Position numbers: made by a program. Source: Minisyncoccota bacterium (GTDB lineage: Bacteria; Patescibacteriota; Minisyncoccia; Phycocordibacterales; GWA1-40-21). From it: a stretch of DNA of 64,000 nt. Below are positions 3,001-18,000 of this stretch, one piece after another. The first letter of the stretch is position 1; the number at the start of each line of letters is the position of its first letter. The stretch is from the NCBI GenBank assembly GCA_041663045.1, contig JBAZRH010000002.1, forward strand, positions 115,699 through 179,698. The letters run 5' to 3'.

Positions 3001-6000
3001 CCGATGTAATCCTACAATCGTCCAGACAGTCTTTCTGTCGCGAGGGCATAAATGTACATCGCCAACACCGATACCACAAATAGTACCTTCGCTAACCATG
3101 CCCTTCGGCGGTTCCATAACTGAAGTTGTCATCTTTATAATCTCCTTAAATTTGTACGGTCTGGATAGGTATCTTACACGAGAAATCTTGTATGTCAACT
3201 ATTTGGACCTCCCTTTGTGGCAAAATATGTAAGACCGACAGCAATAGCATCAAATTCATCGTCGTATTTTATATCTTTATTTATTTTTATGAGGCGCTTG
3301 ACCATCTCTGTCACCTGCCCCTTTTCACTCTTGCCATACCCTGTCACCGCTACCTTTATTGAGACTGGCGAAAATTCTTTTACTTCAAGACCATTTTTTG
3401 AAGCTTCATAAAGCATCACTCCCCTTGCTTCGGAAACATGCATAGCCGTCTTTGCATTTGTCTTAAAAAATAAGTTTTCAATGGCCATCGTACTTGGCTT
3501 GTGCTTTTTTATTACTTTTTCGATTTCTGTGCCGATAAGTCTGAGACGTTCTTCGTGTGCAATTTTCGCAGATGTCTTAAAACACTCCGAAAAGATAAGC
3601 TCCTCCTTCGGCCCATTTTTATCTATCACAGCCACTCCCATTCTTTCGTATCCAGGATCTATCGCTATTATTCTCATAAGTTAATTATAGCTAAACTAAA
3701 AGAGAAAAGCGAAAAGATTAAGACAAAAGCGGTACGGAGCAAATCCTCCGTACCGCTTTATTCAGTCCTTCTTATAGATTTTGAAGAGCTTTAAAAACGT
3801 GAAATGATAAACATAGTAAAGACCTGTGTTTATAATTCCCCATAAAATAGCCGTCCACACTGGTCCAAACCGATTAATCAAGGGGACTACTCCAATATAA
3901 AAGAACAACGCGGTGCAGCTGACGACAAAGATTCTATAAAGAATACCGCTTGCAAAAACCAAACCGTTTCTGATTTTTATCAGTTTCATACAGACTCTCC
4001 TTCTTGTTTAAGTGCGTTTAAGATGCTTCTGATTAAAAATATACCATACAGAAAACATAATACAATAGATTAATATATATGCTTATTATCTAACAAATAC
4101 TTAATAATTTTATCAACAGATTCTTCTATATTTAGTTCTTCTGTGTTAATTGTTAAATGAGGGTTCTCTGGGATCTCATATGGGTCCGATATCCCCGTAA
4201 AATTTCTAATTTCACCTGCGATAGCTTTCTTATAAAGACCTTTTGCATCTCTCTTTATACAAGTGTCTAGAGAAGCATTTATAAAAATCTCGATAAAAGA
4301 CCCTGAAATGTTACGGACAATGTCTCTCTGATGAGAATATGGTGTTATAAAAGACGCAATAACTAATATTTTGTGCTTTTCCAAAATAGAACTAATAAAT
4401 GCTGCTGTCTTTATATTAAAATCACGATCTGCTTTATTAAAGCCCAAATTATTGCCGAAATAATTTCTAAAGATATCTCCGTCTAGTCTCTGAACTTTCA
4501 ATCCTCCCTTACTTAAGATTTCAAAAAGACGGTCAGCGATTGTGCTTTTTCCAGAACTTGGTAAACCAGTAAGCCATAACACGGCCTTTTTATTATGTAA
4601 CTTTTTCTTATATTTTATCTGTTTCTTATTCATTTTTCTTTTTTATCCAATATAATACACGCTCCTATAGTATTGTGTGTAATATCATCTATTATGATAC
4701 AACTCCCTGTATTCTTATTTTTCTCATAGCTATCAAAGAAAACGTCAGAATTTAGCTCTAGAGTAACCCTCGCTATATCGTTTTGTCTTATGAATTTAAC
4801 CGTTTTAATATGACTATTATTCTTAATATCAACAATATAGTCGATTTTCTTAATCATTCCCCTAACTTCCTTTGTGTTATTTTTTAAAATAAAACCATTA
4901 CCTTTCTTTATATCCTTTTCATCAAACCAAAATAATATTACATCTAAAATACTTGCTTGCTTGATGGAGTCCTTCGTACCTATAAACATATCCCCACGAC
5001 TAATATCGATTTTGTCAGCTACAGATATCAATACTGACTGTCTTTTAAAACATCTCTTTACTTTATCAAATCCAACGTAGATATTTTTAATACGAGTCCT
5101 TTTCATGGACGGAACAATTACAATCTCATCTCCACTTCCTAGTTCCCCACCCTCCACCTTTCCAGCATAACCCCTAAACCCAGACTCATTTAAAACGTAC
5201 TGCACCGGCATGCGAAAATCTTTTGGTCTTATTTCTGAATCTAAAGTGAAAGTATCCAAATAATTTATTAGAGTCTTCCCTTTATACCACTTCAGATTAT
5301 TCCCTCTATTTACGACCATATCACCATACTTTGCAGATATTGGTATATAAATACAATTGAAGATTTTCAATCTTTTTGAATATCTTTCCAAATCGTCTTT
5401 GACTCTTTCAAAGACTTCTTTCTTATAGCCAACCAAATCCATCTTATTTATTGTAAAAATAATGTTCTTAACGCCCATCATACTTGCAATAAAAAAATGT
5501 CTCTTTGATTGAATAGAAATGCCTAAAGTAACATCAACTATAATAATAACGGCATCTGCCCTCGATACACCGGTGATCATATTCCTAGTATATTGTTCAT
5601 GACCTGGGACATCTACCAGCAAAAACTTTCTGTCAGCATGGGTAAAATGTCTGTATGCAACATCGATAGTGATACCTTGTTCTCTTTCTGCTTCGAGACC
5701 ATCTGTAAGGTATGCCAGATTATCTATTGCTGAATCCTTGTTTTTATATTTTTTAAGATCCTTCAAGACATCTTGATAAATAGAGTCACAATCATATAAA
5801 AGCCTACCTATTAATGTGGACTTTCCATCATCAACGCTTCCCGCTGTCGAAATAATTACAAGTTCTTTGTGTTCCATAAAATATCTTTAAAAATAACCCT
5901 GCTTCTTTTTATATTCCATACTAGAGCTATTGTCTATAGCTCGAGTTTGTCTTTCGGAAAAATGAGTAAGTCGGATTTCCTCAATAATCTCATCTAAATT

Positions 6001-15000: not shown

Positions 15001-18000
15001 CAATAAATATATCTATCCGTATTTTTCAGATGAGTGGGTAGAGATGTCCTTGGTGAAATACTCAATAGAAAATGAGAAGTTACCAATAGTAAATCCGTTA
15101 ATAAACAAAGCTCGCTTTATAAGCCCGGTGCTCCCCTTCTTTTCTTTCTTATCTGAAGTCTTTTTGATATTAAAACTTGACCCGCTCACACAATTTCCCT
15201 TTCTATCAATCTTATCCGGCTTATCCATCTGCTCACTTATCTATCTTATCTTAAGAAAAATAGGTATAGGAACAGCCATATCACTCTTGATTTTCCTCTC
15301 AATACCATACATCACAAACGGCGCCAATCTCCCCGGTATTTGGTTTTTAATCCCATTAATAATGGGGATTATCCTATTCCTGTTAAGTGTTCTCTCTTTT
15401 ATTTCAGAAAATAAAAAGCTGGCTTTGATTAACTCGATACTATCTGTTATCTTTTATCCCCCAATGATCGTCTTTTCTTTTCCGATTTTAATAATTATAT
15501 TTCTTAGAAAAGAGGCTGGAAGAAATAACAGGTGGCTAATAATATCCGGAGTAATTCTATTTATAATATTAGCAAGTACTTCATATTTTATCTTTAAGGA
15601 AGGTACATGGGGCTATTTAATGTCACTTATCTTTAGAACAAATCTAGAAAGTGGAATACCACAATTTAATCCTTTAAACATAATTCCTTTATGGTTATTA
15701 ATTCCTGCAATCCTGGGCATATTTACAGTTCTTAAAAAAAGACTGTGGATCATAATATGTCCAATATTGGTTGGAGCAATCTTCTGGTGCGTTTATCTAT
15801 TCACACAAAAAGTGTTCATTATAGACTATCCTAGAGTCGTGGTTATAACCTCCTTACTTATATCAATACTGTCTGGAATGGGAATACGTTTAGTCGTAGA
15901 CAAGATTAATAGTAAATGTTCCTGGCAAAAGAGAGTGCCGGATTTGATCTGGATGATTATTATAGTAAGTACTTTTGCCATTGCTTCACCTTACTATACG
16001 GCAAATTCTTCTTGGAAAAGACTAACCATGAATATAGGAGTTGGACAAAAAGAAATTCTTCCGGCTTCACCGTCAAATACATATCTTACAAATGACGACT
16101 TACGGCTTTTCCAAAACATAAAAAAGAAAAGGTTCATTTCAGTGCCATGGAAAGGTCTTGTAATAGGGGCAGCGACAGGTAATTATCCTATTGAATCAAA
16201 AGCCTCAATAATTACAAATAAGTTATATTCTTATAACGGTTTCATGTCTGGAAACTGCACAACTAAAATAAACACCTCTGATAAATTCAGAATTGATTAT
16301 GTTTATTCAAGACCATTTTCCTGTGATTTTTTTGAAAAAATCGGAGAAAGTGAAGAAGGGTTGATCTTGTACAAATTTAGTAATAAGAGATAAACCAAGC
16401 TTAGCCAATATTAAAATATACTGGGCTTGGCGTATTTTAATATTGTTTATCTCATACTACCCTCAAATCTAAGATGAGGAAAATCTCCAGAAACCTCAAG
16501 CCAAGTATCTGTAAAATTCCAAGCATTCATTGGCGCATTTAAAGAGCTATAGAAATATGAAAGCCCTCCGTTATCATCATTTATCTTCGTACAACCAGTA
16601 TCACCTCCAGAGTAACAGTTTGTAGCGCCATCTCCAATGTTATCATACCAGTATGTATTAGTGATGGTTGCATCATAATTCGATATACCCCCAATACTAC
16701 CAGAACAGTTGATAGCCCCTGTAGCAAAACTATTCTGGATAGTTTGAAAATGATGCCCCACCAATCCTCCGCAACCTTCTGCACTAATATCTGTACTTAC
16801 TACACTTGTAGAGTAAGAATTTAGAAGAGTAAATGATTCACCCGGATACATACAGCCGATGAGACCTCCGGTTTGCACTGGCCCTGTCCCGTTATTATGA
16901 GCAGTTCCTGTAGAATAAGAGTTGCTTATCAAAATACTACTACCACCAACATCTCCGATTAACCCCCCTACAAATATTCCTTGTGTACTATTTGTTCCTC
17001 CATAGACATCCCCGGAAAAATAGGCCTGGTCAAGGGTAGAATTTGTCCCCAAATAACCGAGTAATCCTCCGGTTGTATTTCCACCACGAGAAACTCCGGT
17101 CGCATAGACTAAACTTAAAGTAGAGTTACTAATCACTCCACCGACAAGTGAGCCGGTATCGTGTTGTCCGGTTATATCGACGTTTTCAATACCGACTTTC
17201 GTGATGGTTGCACCTCCGACATACCCAAATAACCCTACACCATTAACTCCTGGTCTATTTATATACAAATTGGTTATTTTATAATAATCACCACTAAAAA
17301 TACCTGCAAAAGGAGAAGCATAAGTACCAATTGGTTCAAATCCAGAACCACCATTCCAACTTACAGTATCCGAACAATCTATATCATTCGTTAAAATATA
17401 ATTTGCTAATAAGTCAGTATTTATTGCTTGTAATTCTGTACAATTAGTTATTTGAGTAGTTAGTAAACAAATATAATCAGAAGAACTACATAAACCTGAC
17501 TGACAGTCTGTTCCTTGGGTACAAGCCTCTCCTACGCCAGCAAGAGGTACATAACTCCCTGCCACCGCCAAATACGTCGTCCCTGTTTTTATATCAGAAG
17601 CAGAAAAGAGATTTGTAAGAGCAGAATATATCTGTGATATAGAGTGCATGGTGGCACCTACAACACTGCCTGTGGTAAGAGTGTGGGAGGAAGATGTGAC
17701 TCTAATACCAGACCCTTGTGTAAGATTCCAAATATCTTCAAGAGAATAGCCCGTCACATCTGGTGATGTAAGCGGCGCGAGAGAAGAGGAAGAAGCAGAA
17801 AGAGAAGATGGTTTAGCCTCACCAGCTGTGGCACCGAGTTTGGTGATACCGTCGGCTAGATTAATAGGATCTACCAAATTGGCCAATAGAACATATAATT
17901 CTCCTATAGAATGTGAGGTAGTAGCTATAACTTCTGTAGTTGTAGATAAAACATGATCTCCTAAGGTAGCTGTGGTATTGTTTTGTATAAGATTATACAA

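Follow-up and report, generated by a model that had tools for sequence, protein, structure and literature searches.

A cluster of sulfate-activation genes lies directly beside genes for the synthesis and export of a glycan in this CPR bacterium, which raises the question of what its PAPS is for. Sulfate may be activated here for reduction or for transfer to another molecule and, in the latter case, the glycan made next door may or may not be the acceptor. The question was approached through the whole 64-kb stretch of DNA analysed (the window) and through cysD neighbourhoods in CPR relatives.

Gene content of the locus

The cysDNC genes, on the minus strand, diverge from wzm-wzt, and the glycosyltransferase genes lie beyond the exporter:

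4070..4633, minus strand: cysC, APS kinase, 187 aa (PF01583, 2.6e-49)
4630..5877, minus strand: cysN, GTPase subunit of ATP sulfurylase, 415 aa (TIGR02034, 429.4; cut-off 336.1)
5887..6801, minus strand: cysD, catalytic subunit of ATP sulfurylase, 304 aa (TIGR02039, 432.4; cut-off 396.6)
6802..6889, unstranded: AT-rich cysD-wzm divergent intergenic region, 88 bp (sequence read)
6890..7678, plus strand: Wzm-like ABC-2 permease, 262 aa (PF01061, 3.9e-9)
7675..8454, plus strand: wzt/tagH-like ABC ATPase, 259 aa (PF00005)
8443..9426, minus strand: GT2, 327 aa, variable part of the locus (PF00535, 6.3e-22)
9416..10531, minus strand: GT4, 371 aa, conserved core (PF00534, 9.9e-29, and PF13439)
10528..11679, minus strand: membrane-anchored GT2, 383 aa, conserved core (PF00535, 2.4e-30)
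11881..14583, plus strand: double GT-B protein, 900 aa, variable part of the locus (Pfam and PDB profile)
14639..16393, plus strand: multi-pass membrane protein, GT-C fold, 584 aa, conserved core (structure model)
16447..18132, minus strand: Ser/Thr-rich protein, secreted or anchored, carrying GLUG-like Gly-rich repeats, 561 aa

Every gene that an earlier note had named here was found at its position, with families confirmed by Pfam or NCBIfam and, for the GT-C protein, by a fold model. CysD, CysN and CysC all score above curated family cut-offs with intact motifs. Further scores were 435.8 against NF003587 (cut-off 195) and 432.7 against NF009214 (cut-off 413) for CysD, and 188.4 against TIGR00455 (cut-off 138.7) and 175.9 against NF003013 (cut-off 163) for CysC. 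The P-loop GLPSSGKST and an LDGD motif are visible in the CysC translation, and G1 GSVDDGKST, G3 DVPGHEQY and G4 NKMD are present in CysN, whose gene overlaps cysC by 4 nt. Judged by its sequence, CysC is the enzyme that would convert APS to PAPS. Furthermore, CysD has a 100% identical NCBI entry from Candidatus Paceibacterota, and this CPR membership supports the premise of a reduced genome. Low GC is common to cysDNC and the glycan genes; it is absent at third codon positions, and dnaA and dnaN are equally low. Promoter-like matches across the locus were not commoner than in shuffled sequence in a promoter scan, and we only infer that cysDNC and wzm-wzt share regulation from the divergent intergenic region. 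Both the GC pattern and the promoter scan weigh against a coupling of the two sets of genes.

The permease matches Wzm/RfbD (NF050109) at 4.6e-13, far under the equivalog cut-off, and its orthologues in the relatives L093 and L089 are 59% and 55% identical. Similarly, the ATPase matches both TagH-type (3.3e-47) and galactan Wzt/RfbE (3.2e-45) proteins under their equivalog cut-offs; it has no C-terminal carbohydrate-binding extension and is 61-62% identical to its orthologues in the same two relatives. An orthologue of the 327-aa GT2 was found in neither of them, whereas the GT4 is 63% identical to its L093/L094 orthologue and the 383-aa GT2 is 66% identical to that in L093. The best match of the 383-aa GT2 is AglJ (TIGR04182, 6.1e-40), with further matches to a Dol-P hexose transferase (2.6e-26), PpgS and ArnC; PF26629 (GT2_TM_C) is recorded and C-terminal hydrophobic helices are visible. 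It is thus predicted to belong with the polyprenyl-phosphate glycosyltransferases AglJ, GtrB and DPM1. A GtrA/Wzx flippase, an initiating TagO/WecA enzyme and an LCP ligase were not seen in the locus.

The 584-aa protein has no match in Pfam or NCBIfam, and its predicted model (pLDDT 91.4) adopts a GT-C fold resembling the short AglB/OST proteins, with an AglB-like C-terminal domain; the WWDYG motif is not conserved. It belongs to an uncharacterised family common to CPR bacteria and DPANN archaea. The adjoining 561-aa protein has an N-terminal hydrophobic segment in translation, an S+T content of 24% and weak domain matches only (GLUG and M26_N, E 0.02-0.04); its N-x-S/T sequons are not enriched (11 observed against 8.2 expected). 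It is possibly an acceptor and possibly a mere neighbour, its membership of the system not being demonstrable.

The search for a sulfotransferase and for sulfate reduction

The earlier note had seen neither a PAPS reductase nor a sulfite reductase in the window, nor any sulfotransferase motif in the locus, and both observations held under a wider search. This comprised Pfam on almost every ORF of at least 100 aa, HMM/phmmer on the full set of 587 six-frame ORFs of at least 40 aa, tblastn and motif regular expressions. No sulfotransferase, cysH, sulfite reductase, cysQ or sqdB was found in the 64 kb by Pfam, six-frame profiles and motifs, and the window likewise has no cysK-like gene or sulfate permease. 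The 5'-PSB/3'-PB-like motif pair occurs in no ORF of the window by regular expression. Moreover, no close orthologue of the sulfotransferase found in L082 came from the window's contig among the best 120 family matches.

The first 450 aa of the 900-aa protein, to which the same note had pointed as a place to look, proved to be no hiding place for the transferase. The protein consists of a leader of about 135 aa, a GT4-like GT-B module (136-495) and a GT4 module (518-867). Pfam places GT4/GT1 families at 518-867 and PF13524 at 347-480, and residues 1-356 searched alone gave zero Pfam matches. The first module has 10049 relatives, mostly within multidomain proteins of 1200-1400 aa, and its profile matches GT4 structures in the PDB (2jjm at 1e-4, with PimA, PimB, MshA and WlaC). 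Against a sulfotransferase family, hhalign gave a probability of 0.2%, and this candidate was rejected.

Eight distinct CPR cysD neighbourhoods, the window included, were compared. Glycan genes adjoin cysD in six of them (the window, L089, L084, L085, L090 and L175); since this recurs in independent, non-orthologous contexts, the adjacency appears to be more than chance. A canonical sulfotransferase (PF00685/PF13469) lies within 10 kb in three (L082, L084 and L090) and a CysQ-like PAP phosphatase (TIGR01331, 191-202 bits) in two (L084 and L090), while a sulfite reductase occurs in none of the eight. Two relatives carry cysDNC, a PF00685 sulfotransferase and CysQ inside glycan clusters; in the Peregrinibacteria L090-L092 a complete ST-cysQ-cysD-cysNC operon sits inside a Wzx-type polysaccharide cluster. 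In L089 cysDNC still diverges from wzm-wzt, although that genome differs from the window in GC (0.28 vs 0.37), is only 57% identical in CysN and 62% in Wzt, and has other flanks and other glycosyltransferases, the 900-aa protein and the 327-aa GT2 being absent. The use of PAPS for sulfation over assimilation is therefore well supported at the level of the lineage. The earlier proposal is partly supported: for the lineage, a role of cysDN(C) in sulfur chemistry linked to glycans, and not in making cysteine, stands through the relatives with sulfotransferase and CysQ and the missing sulfite reductases, whereas a sulfotransferase in this genome and the glycan as acceptor were not established.

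Competing uses of PAPS

That PAPS serves sulfo-conjugation and not assimilation in this cell is, in our judgement, quite probable. The opposing reading, that sulfate is activated for reduction, with a cysH elsewhere turning PAPS into sulfite for cysteine or for a UDP-sulfoquinovose synthase, seems decidedly improbable. Published CPR surveys take sat, cysC and cysN to be genes of sulfate reduction (PMC7906910). In addition, the Falkowbacteria L175/L176 carry a CysH-like gene (NF002537, 197.8; cut-off 154) followed by cysD, cysN and then, all within a glycan cluster, a UDP-sulfoquinovose-synthase-like gene of full length (NF041015, 1e-144); were this route the true one, the glycan would be sulfonated, not sulfated. 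However, cysC is present here and absent from the L175 version, and the lack of cysH, sqdB, sulfite reductase and cysK in the window argues against reduction, as does the absence of sulfite reductase from all eight contexts. CPR genomes also typically lack amino-acid biosynthesis.

For sulfo-conjugation, the glycan made by the adjoining Wzm/Wzt locus is a tentative acceptor, to which we would give slightly less than an even chance; because the transferase must lie outside the window, this role is plausible but unproven. It is rather unlikely that PAPS instead sulfates an unrelated acceptor, such as a protein (secreted or pilin-like), a lipid, a small molecule or a different glycan, through a sulfotransferase encoded elsewhere, the adjacency to wzm-wzt being historical. 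In L082, whose CysD is the closest (80%), and in L083, the neighbours of cysDNC and of a 282-aa sulfotransferase are Lcl_C-domain and unknown proteins, and no glycosyltransferase cluster is nearby; in L088 a 61%-identical sulfotransferase lies next to a CARDB protein and an N_methyl protein of pilin-like type. Moreover, L093/L094 have an orthologous glycan core and no cysDNC, which shows that the glycan does not require cysDNC in cis, and the sulfotransferase family is seldom found beside cysDN in metagenome loci (cysD/N nearby in 0/80, cysC only in 8/80). Against this stand the recurrent association of cysDN(C) with mutually non-orthologous glycan clusters and the divergent arrangement kept in two genomes that differ in flanks and GC. 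A non-canonical sulfotransferase within the locus itself, whether in the 900-aa protein (leader or first module), in the last ~100 aa of the 327-aa GT2 or in the GT-C protein, is very improbable. The Pfam-blank residues 1-356 and the uncharacterised GT-C family leave room for one, but residues 136-495 match glycosyltransferase structures and not sulfotransferases, the leftover leader is too small for a sulfotransferase of known fold, the active site of the GT-C protein points to the outside, where PAPS is absent, no ORF has the motif pair, and L089 keeps cysDNC beside wzm-wzt without the 900-aa protein or the 327-aa GT2.

Known systems and a possible pathway

CysDN/CysC paralogues supply PAPS to a sulfotransferase in NodPQ-NodH (Nod-factor sulfation in Sinorhizobium), RaxPQ-RaxST (Xanthomonas) and CysDNC-Stf0 (sulfolipid-1 in Mycobacterium), all with surface or secreted targets, and in mycobacteria the sulfotransferase gene lies apart from cysDNC. 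These organisms also assimilate sulfate, and their acceptors (lipo-chitooligosaccharide, peptide tyrosine and trehalose, respectively) are not ABC-exported polymers. The sulfated-CPS cluster of Vibrio sp. KMM 8419 likewise combines an ABC exporter, GT2 and GT4 glycosyltransferases, sulfotransferases and extra, dedicated cysD, cysN and cysC copies for PAPS (PMC11641403). However, it has three sulfotransferase genes where the window's 64 kb has none, its product is chemically shown to be sulfated, and its exporter is the KpsMT/KpsDE of a diderm, in contrast to the Wzm/Wzt/TagGH-like exporter of a CPR cell. The Peregrinibacteria L090-L092 belong to the same radiation, with a 66% identical CysD and PAPS genes amid surface-glycan genes, but they have a sulfotransferase, CysQ, a fused CysNC and a Wzx flippase, whereas in the window cysN and cysC are separate genes, the exporter is of the ABC type, and sulfotransferase and CysQ are both missing.

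For the later steps, Gram-positive rhamnose-polysaccharide and WTA pathways offer a parallel. In S. pyogenes GacA-L and CsbB/GtcA/YfhO, a polymer made in the cytoplasm leaves through a TagGH/GacDE-type ABC transporter and is decorated outside, and in multi-component transmembrane glycosylation a membrane GT-A makes the C55-P-sugar for a GT-C enzyme (PMC8035078). The window shares the exporter, the GT2_TM_C enzyme and the GT-C protein, but the flippase, initiating enzyme and ligase were not seen in the locus; its GT-C is nearer to short archaeal AglB than to YfhO, PMT_2 or GacL, and sulfation is no feature of those pathways. In Halobacterium salinarum, an AglJ-type enzyme starts the glycan on a polyprenyl monophosphate, the N-glycan is sulfated while still linked to dolichol phosphate, and an AglB-type GT-C transfers it (PMC8674786). 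This agrees with the window's AglJ match and AglB-like domain; however, that system is archaeal, the window GT2 scores far under the AglJ equivalog cut-off (137 vs 325), the WWDYG motif is not conserved here, and the adjoining 561-aa protein is not enriched in sequons.

Coupling of a cysDNC PAPS supply for sulfation to the adjoining ABC-transporter-dependent surface glycan pathway, taken as a whole, has about even chances of being correct. In such a pathway, CysDN would form APS and CysC PAPS, as their family membership indicates; the GT2, GT4 and double GT-B protein, to go by their families, would assemble a glycan on a polyprenyl-phosphate carrier on the cytoplasmic side of the membrane. A candidate cytoplasmic PAPS-dependent sulfotransferase, encoded elsewhere, would sulfate the lipid-linked glycan before its putative export by Wzm/Wzt. 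The membrane GT2 may make a polyprenyl-P-sugar which the OST-like GT-C would use outside to decorate or transfer the glycan, as suggested by its fold and by the conservation of the gene pair. With its PAPS genes beside a glycan locus, and with relatives that join such genes to sulfotransferases, this cell probably puts sulfate on a surface molecule, although the window does not encode the enzyme required.

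Sulfate activation beside a glycan export locus

A tight minus-strand operon of cysD, cysN and cysC, with a 4-nt overlap between cysN and cysC, is separated by 88 bp of intergenic DNA from the divergently transcribed wzm-wzt pair, and five glycosyltransferase (GT) genes lie beyond the latter. Every gene that the earlier note had named in this locus was borne out by ORF listing and family scans.

Genes of the locus (window coordinates)
4070-4633, minus strand: cysC, APS kinase (TIGR00455, 188.4 vs cut-off 138.7; NF003013, 175.9 vs 163)
4630-5877, minus strand: cysN, ATP sulfurylase subunit (TIGR02034, 429.4 vs cut-off 336.1)
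5887-6801, minus strand: cysD, ATP sulfurylase subunit (TIGR02039, 432.4 vs cut-off 396.6; NF009214, 432.7 vs 413)
6890-7678, plus strand: wzm, ABC-2 permease (PF01061; best named relative Wzm/RfbD)
7675-8454, plus strand: wzt, ABC ATPase (PF00005; best named relatives Wzt/RfbE and TagH)
8443-9426, minus strand: GT2 glycosyltransferase, converging on wzt
9416-10531, minus strand: GT4 glycosyltransferase, converging on wzt
10528-11679, minus strand: GT2_TM_C, a GT2 with a C-terminal membrane domain (PF26629) and a visibly hydrophobic C-terminus, converging on wzt
11881-14583, plus strand: 900-aa protein, diverging from the GT2/GT4/GT2_TM_C group
14639-16393, plus strand: 584-aa membrane protein, diverging from the same group

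The whole-protein scores of CysD and CysN exceed the curated NCBIfam cut-offs for heterodimeric ATP sulfurylase. The nucleotide-binding motifs of the CysD/CysN/CysC set are undamaged, with G1 (GSVDDGKST), G3 (DVPGHEQY) and G4 (NKMD) all found in the CysN translation and the P-loop (GLPSSGKST) and RLDGD in that of CysC. Scanning for promoters and terminators gave results at chance level. A low-GC island spanning cysC to the GT-C gene was also considered and found weakly supported, as GC3 was no different and dnaA/dnaN were equally low.

The hallmark of ABC-dependent glycan export, an ABC-2 permease paired with its cognate ATPase within a GT cluster, is present. Since the Wzm and Wzt scores all fall below equivalog cut-offs, the exporter is assigned at family level only. 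No GtrA- or Wzx-type flippase family was found among the scanned window ORFs of at least 100 aa. The best named relatives of the GT2_TM_C protein are AglJ, Dol-P hexose transferase, PpgS and ArnC; this membrane-anchored GT2 of polyprenyl-P-sugar type lies beside a GT-C-fold protein, as in multi-component transmembrane glycosylation, and the pair is kept in two comparison loci, L093 and L094. Conservation there extends to the whole glycan core (identities of 59% for wzm, 61% for wzt, 63% for GT4, 66% for GT2_TM_C and 49% for GT-C), which is accompanied by other GTs and occurs without cysDNC. As such, the glycan machinery behaves as a module in its own right, with cysDNC attached to it in some cases.

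The GT-C member of the core, the 584-aa protein, had no Pfam (including STT3, PF02516), NCBIfam or PDB sequence match, and a 40-sequence profile retrieved no PDB sequence either. Together with hypothetical proteins of about 590 aa from CPR (candidate phyla radiation) bacteria and DPANN archaea it makes up one family; no relatives were found in the metagenome search. A structure predicted from a 40-sequence alignment (pLDDT 91.4, pTM 0.92) has a GT-C fold, for which Foldseek returned PglB (3e-7), followed by STT3, AglB, ALG12, AftA and ArnT. The trait of STT3, AglB and PglB, a GT-C transmembrane fold with a characteristic C-terminal globular domain, is present in this model. The conserved C-terminal motif of the family is PWKG (W504, K505, G506) and not WWDYG; with this motif and PF02516 both absent, the protein is OST-like by fold and is not classed as an OST. 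An OST-like GT-C family common to CPR and DPANN is an additional lead.

Adjoining the GT-C gene is a 561-aa protein (16447-18132, minus strand) with an N-terminal anchor or signal, a Ser+Thr content of 24% and Gly-rich repeats weakly like GLUG/IgA-protease N-terminal regions. It is possibly a surface protein that carries glycans; its N-glycosylation sequons are not enriched (11 observed vs 8.2 expected).

In gene content the window is consistent with a bacterial CPR genome: it carries ruvABC, dnaA/dnaN and PBP1, a T4SS-like cluster of monoderm type and one tRNA. Its CysD is 100% identical to an NCBI protein of a Candidatus Paceibacterota MAG. The ruv genes are dispersed, as ruvB and ruvC (1309-3677) lie just downstream of cysC and ruvA (52190-52756) is 48 kb away. 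The genes dnaN and dnaA (22009-26470) occupy the lowest-GC region (0.31 over 22001-24000), and upstream of them lie two small ORFs of unknown function (200 aa and 149 aa), with a gap before yidC/jag. This region probably holds the replication origin; no clear GC-skew switch was seen near dnaN/dnaA at 2-kb resolution. In the T4SS-like cluster (27714-39055, minus strand), a T4SS pilin (PF18895) is encoded along with a P-loop ATPase of VirB4/TraG type (608 aa), a member of the PrgI family and several large unknown proteins; two peptidoglycan-binding-domain proteins (39126-43642) come next. The cluster resembles the monoderm-conjugation-like T4SS of Patescibacteria (bioRxiv 10.1101/2025.01.22.634366).

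Sulfotransferase and reductive genes

Clusters for sulfated polysaccharides are marked by PAPS-synthesis genes and sulfotransferase (ST) genes inside a glycan cluster (PMC11641403). For example, Vibrio sp. KMM 8419 makes a sulfated CPS, verified chemically, from a cluster that combines an ABC exporter and GTs with additional copies of cysDNC and with STs (PMC11641403). The first hallmark, PAPS genes beside GTs and an exporter, is present in the window, and the second, an ST gene in the cluster, is absent from it.

The earlier note had seen no sulfotransferase motif by eye, and several searches of the window agree. Pfam scans, which took in nearly all window ORFs of at least 100 aa, detected no ST family (PF00685, PF13469, PF03567 or Stf0 type), and tblastn of two CPR STs against the window found none. 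When a profile HMM of a 38-member CPR family was run together with phmmer searches using two other CPR STs against 587 six-frame ORFs of at least 40 aa, the three ST types gave best E-values of 0.2-0.4 across all six frames. The sole window match to a regular expression for the 5'-PSB/3'-PB motifs was the KTG motif of PBP1. Furthermore, among the best 120 matches to the ST family of L082, a CPR locus in which cysDNC lies near an ST, none was recognised as coming from the window's own contig, and the best Logan-only match came from a different sample. The case made by the window is incomplete because the transferase is absent from it.

A cryptic transferase inside the locus is very improbable. 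The candidate put forward for a profile check was the N-terminal 450 aa of the 900-aa protein, whose C-terminal half is GT4 by Pfam and whose residues 1-356 alone had no Pfam match. Residues 136-495 proved to be a module of about 350 aa that is very widespread, with 10049 relatives at E<=1e-3, most of them parts of multidomain proteins of 1200-1400 aa; the profile of the module matches solved GT4/GT-B enzymes (2jjm at 1e-4, also PimA, PimB, MshA and WlaC). Alignment with the CPR sulfotransferase profile gave an hhalign probability of 0.2%, that is, no relation. These results rule out a hidden sulfotransferase in the N-terminal half and make the protein an enzyme of two GT-B modules preceded by a short leader.

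The claim that the window lacks PAPS reductase and sulfite reductase likewise held in Pfam scans and phmmer searches. Across the 64 kb there was no ST, sulfite reductase, CysQ, UDP-sulfoquinovose synthase or cysK, and no PAPS/APS reductase besides CysD, the sole PAPS_reduct-family protein in the window; phmmer with CPR CysH, SqdB and CysQ found none.

cysD neighbourhoods in the CPR

Eight distinct CPR cysD neighbourhoods, the window included, were compared. Glycan genes adjoin cysD in six of them, an ST lies within 10 kb in three, CysQ occurs in two and cysH in one; sulfite reductase was found in none of the eight.

CPR cysD neighbourhoods compared (percentages refer to CysD)
Window: cysDNC divergent from wzm-wzt and GT genes; no ST
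L089, 74-78%: identical divergent cysDNC/wzm-wzt layout; other GTs, other flanks, GC 0.28
L082/83, 80%: cysDNC with a 282-aa PF00685/PF13469 ST at 2 kb; no GT cluster
L084, 72%: cysD adjoining an ST-containing GT cluster; CysQ-like gene at 8 kb
L085/86, 69%: cysD-cysNC adjoining a GT4/GT2/AsnB/methyltransferase cluster; no ST within 10 kb
L090-92 (Peregrinibacteria), 66%: ST-cysQ-cysD-cysNC operon within a large Wzx-type polysaccharide cluster
L175/176 (Falkowbacteria), 68%: CysH-like-cysD-cysN, then a full-length UDP-sulfoquinovose-synthase-like gene; teichoic/NeuB-type glycan cluster, no cysC
L177, 65%: cysD-cysN only; neither feature

If glycan clusters make up about 5-10% of such genomes, a share that is assumed and not a measured value, glycan genes adjoining cysD in six of eight contexts, which are for the most part non-orthologous, go far beyond chance. 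In a contig search with CysD, a universally conserved peptide occurred, among the matches listed, in non-CPR genomes only, mostly Proteobacteria.

The Peregrinibacteria loci (L090/L091/L092, 8273-12736) hold a complete sulfation operon mid-cluster, comprising an ST of 299 aa, a CysQ-like protein of 270 aa, cysD and a fused cysNC. This operon is found on at least 24 contigs, and its Wzx-type cluster further holds rml genes, Ugd, DegT, GT4s and methyltransferases. In Falkowbacteria (L175, 9190-13288; L176, 9296-12168), a CysH-like gene (225 aa), cysD and cysN are followed by the synthase-like gene (383 aa), which matches NF041015 at 1e-144 with a score under the equivalog cut-off, in a cluster of TagF/NeuB/WbaP type. 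This gene content points to a CPR bacterium whose surface glycan contains sulfoquinovose, and the cysH-cysDN-SQD1-like arrangement is a further lead.

In L082/L083 (8073-14563), a duplicated pair of genes, for an Lcl_C protein (255/238 aa) and an unknown protein of about 245 aa, flanks cysDNC on both sides, with the ST just outside it; the pair may encode acceptors or represent a duplicated cassette. The cysDNC- and ST-bearing L082 and the core-bearing L093 come from the same ENA sample, and their assignment to one genome was rejected (GC 0.353 vs 0.446). In another locus, L088 (2364-5174), an ST 61% identical to that of L082 immediately follows a pilin-like N_methyl protein (208 aa) and also adjoins a CARDB-domain protein, a hint that some CPR organisms sulfate proteins or pili. 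The L082-type ST family (5'-PSB GLPRSGSTLL; 3'-PB VRDxRDVLAS) is widespread in metagenomes. A search for it yielded 80 loci (L095-L174) of widely differing GC (0.29-0.72), which say little about the CPR; none had cysD/N, and in eight the ST lay near a stand-alone cysC.

Fate of PAPS and implications for CPR surfaces

The best-supported reading is that cysDNC probably supplies PAPS for sulfo-conjugation and not for cysteine synthesis. Judged from gene order, the adjacent ABC-exported glycan would be the most likely acceptor, a choice that we make tentatively. Sulfation would take place in the cytoplasm, on the lipid-linked glycan, by a transferase encoded elsewhere, and the later steps, outside the membrane, would fall to the GT2_TM_C/GT-C pair. 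There are precedents, the Vibrio cluster among them: the N-glycan of Halobacterium is sulfated at the lipid stage (PMC8674786), and in Gram-positive bacteria GT-A/GT-C pairs decorate wall polysaccharides exported by ABC transporters (PMC8035078). The rival view that an unrelated acceptor is sulfated is backed by L082, in which an ST accompanies cysDNC with no GT cluster, and by the pilin-associated ST of L088; set beside the glycan adjacency in six of eight contexts, it seems rather unlikely. Reduction to sulfite, for assimilation or for a sulfoquinovose sugar, is backed by the Falkowbacteria locus L175 and, with sulfite reductase found in none of the eight contexts, is distinctly improbable.

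A broader proposal, which we regard as a long shot, is that the conserved core is an archaeal-style glycosylation pathway common to CPR and DPANN. Its members would be an AglJ-like polyprenyl-phosphate GT2, GT4, Wzm/Wzt and a short AglB-like GT-C with PWKG in place of WWDYG, and a surface protein or the cell wall would receive, en bloc, a glycan linked to lipid monophosphate. By analogy with Halobacterium, lineages with cysDNC adjoining the core would sulfate the glycan on its lipid carrier. Were this proposal true, episymbionts would gain a polyanionic sulfated coat for host attachment.

PAPS genes within glycan clusters are already known, and the lineage is the new element. No link of CPR bacteria to sulfotransferases or sulfated glycans was found in the searchable literature. 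CPR surveys file sat, cysC and cysN under sulfate reduction (PMC7906910), and these genes have elsewhere been treated as sulfate-reduction genes (PMC9698310). The CPR neighbourhoods compared here point to surface chemistry rather than sulfate reduction, and to genes that in these reduced genomes would feed sulfate esters (ST and CysQ) or sulfoquinovose (cysH and SQD1-like). If the surface-chemistry reading is right, assignments of biogeochemical roles to CPR bacteria would need correcting, and anionic sulfated glycans would become candidates for what determines contact between episymbiont and host, phage recognition or mineral interaction.
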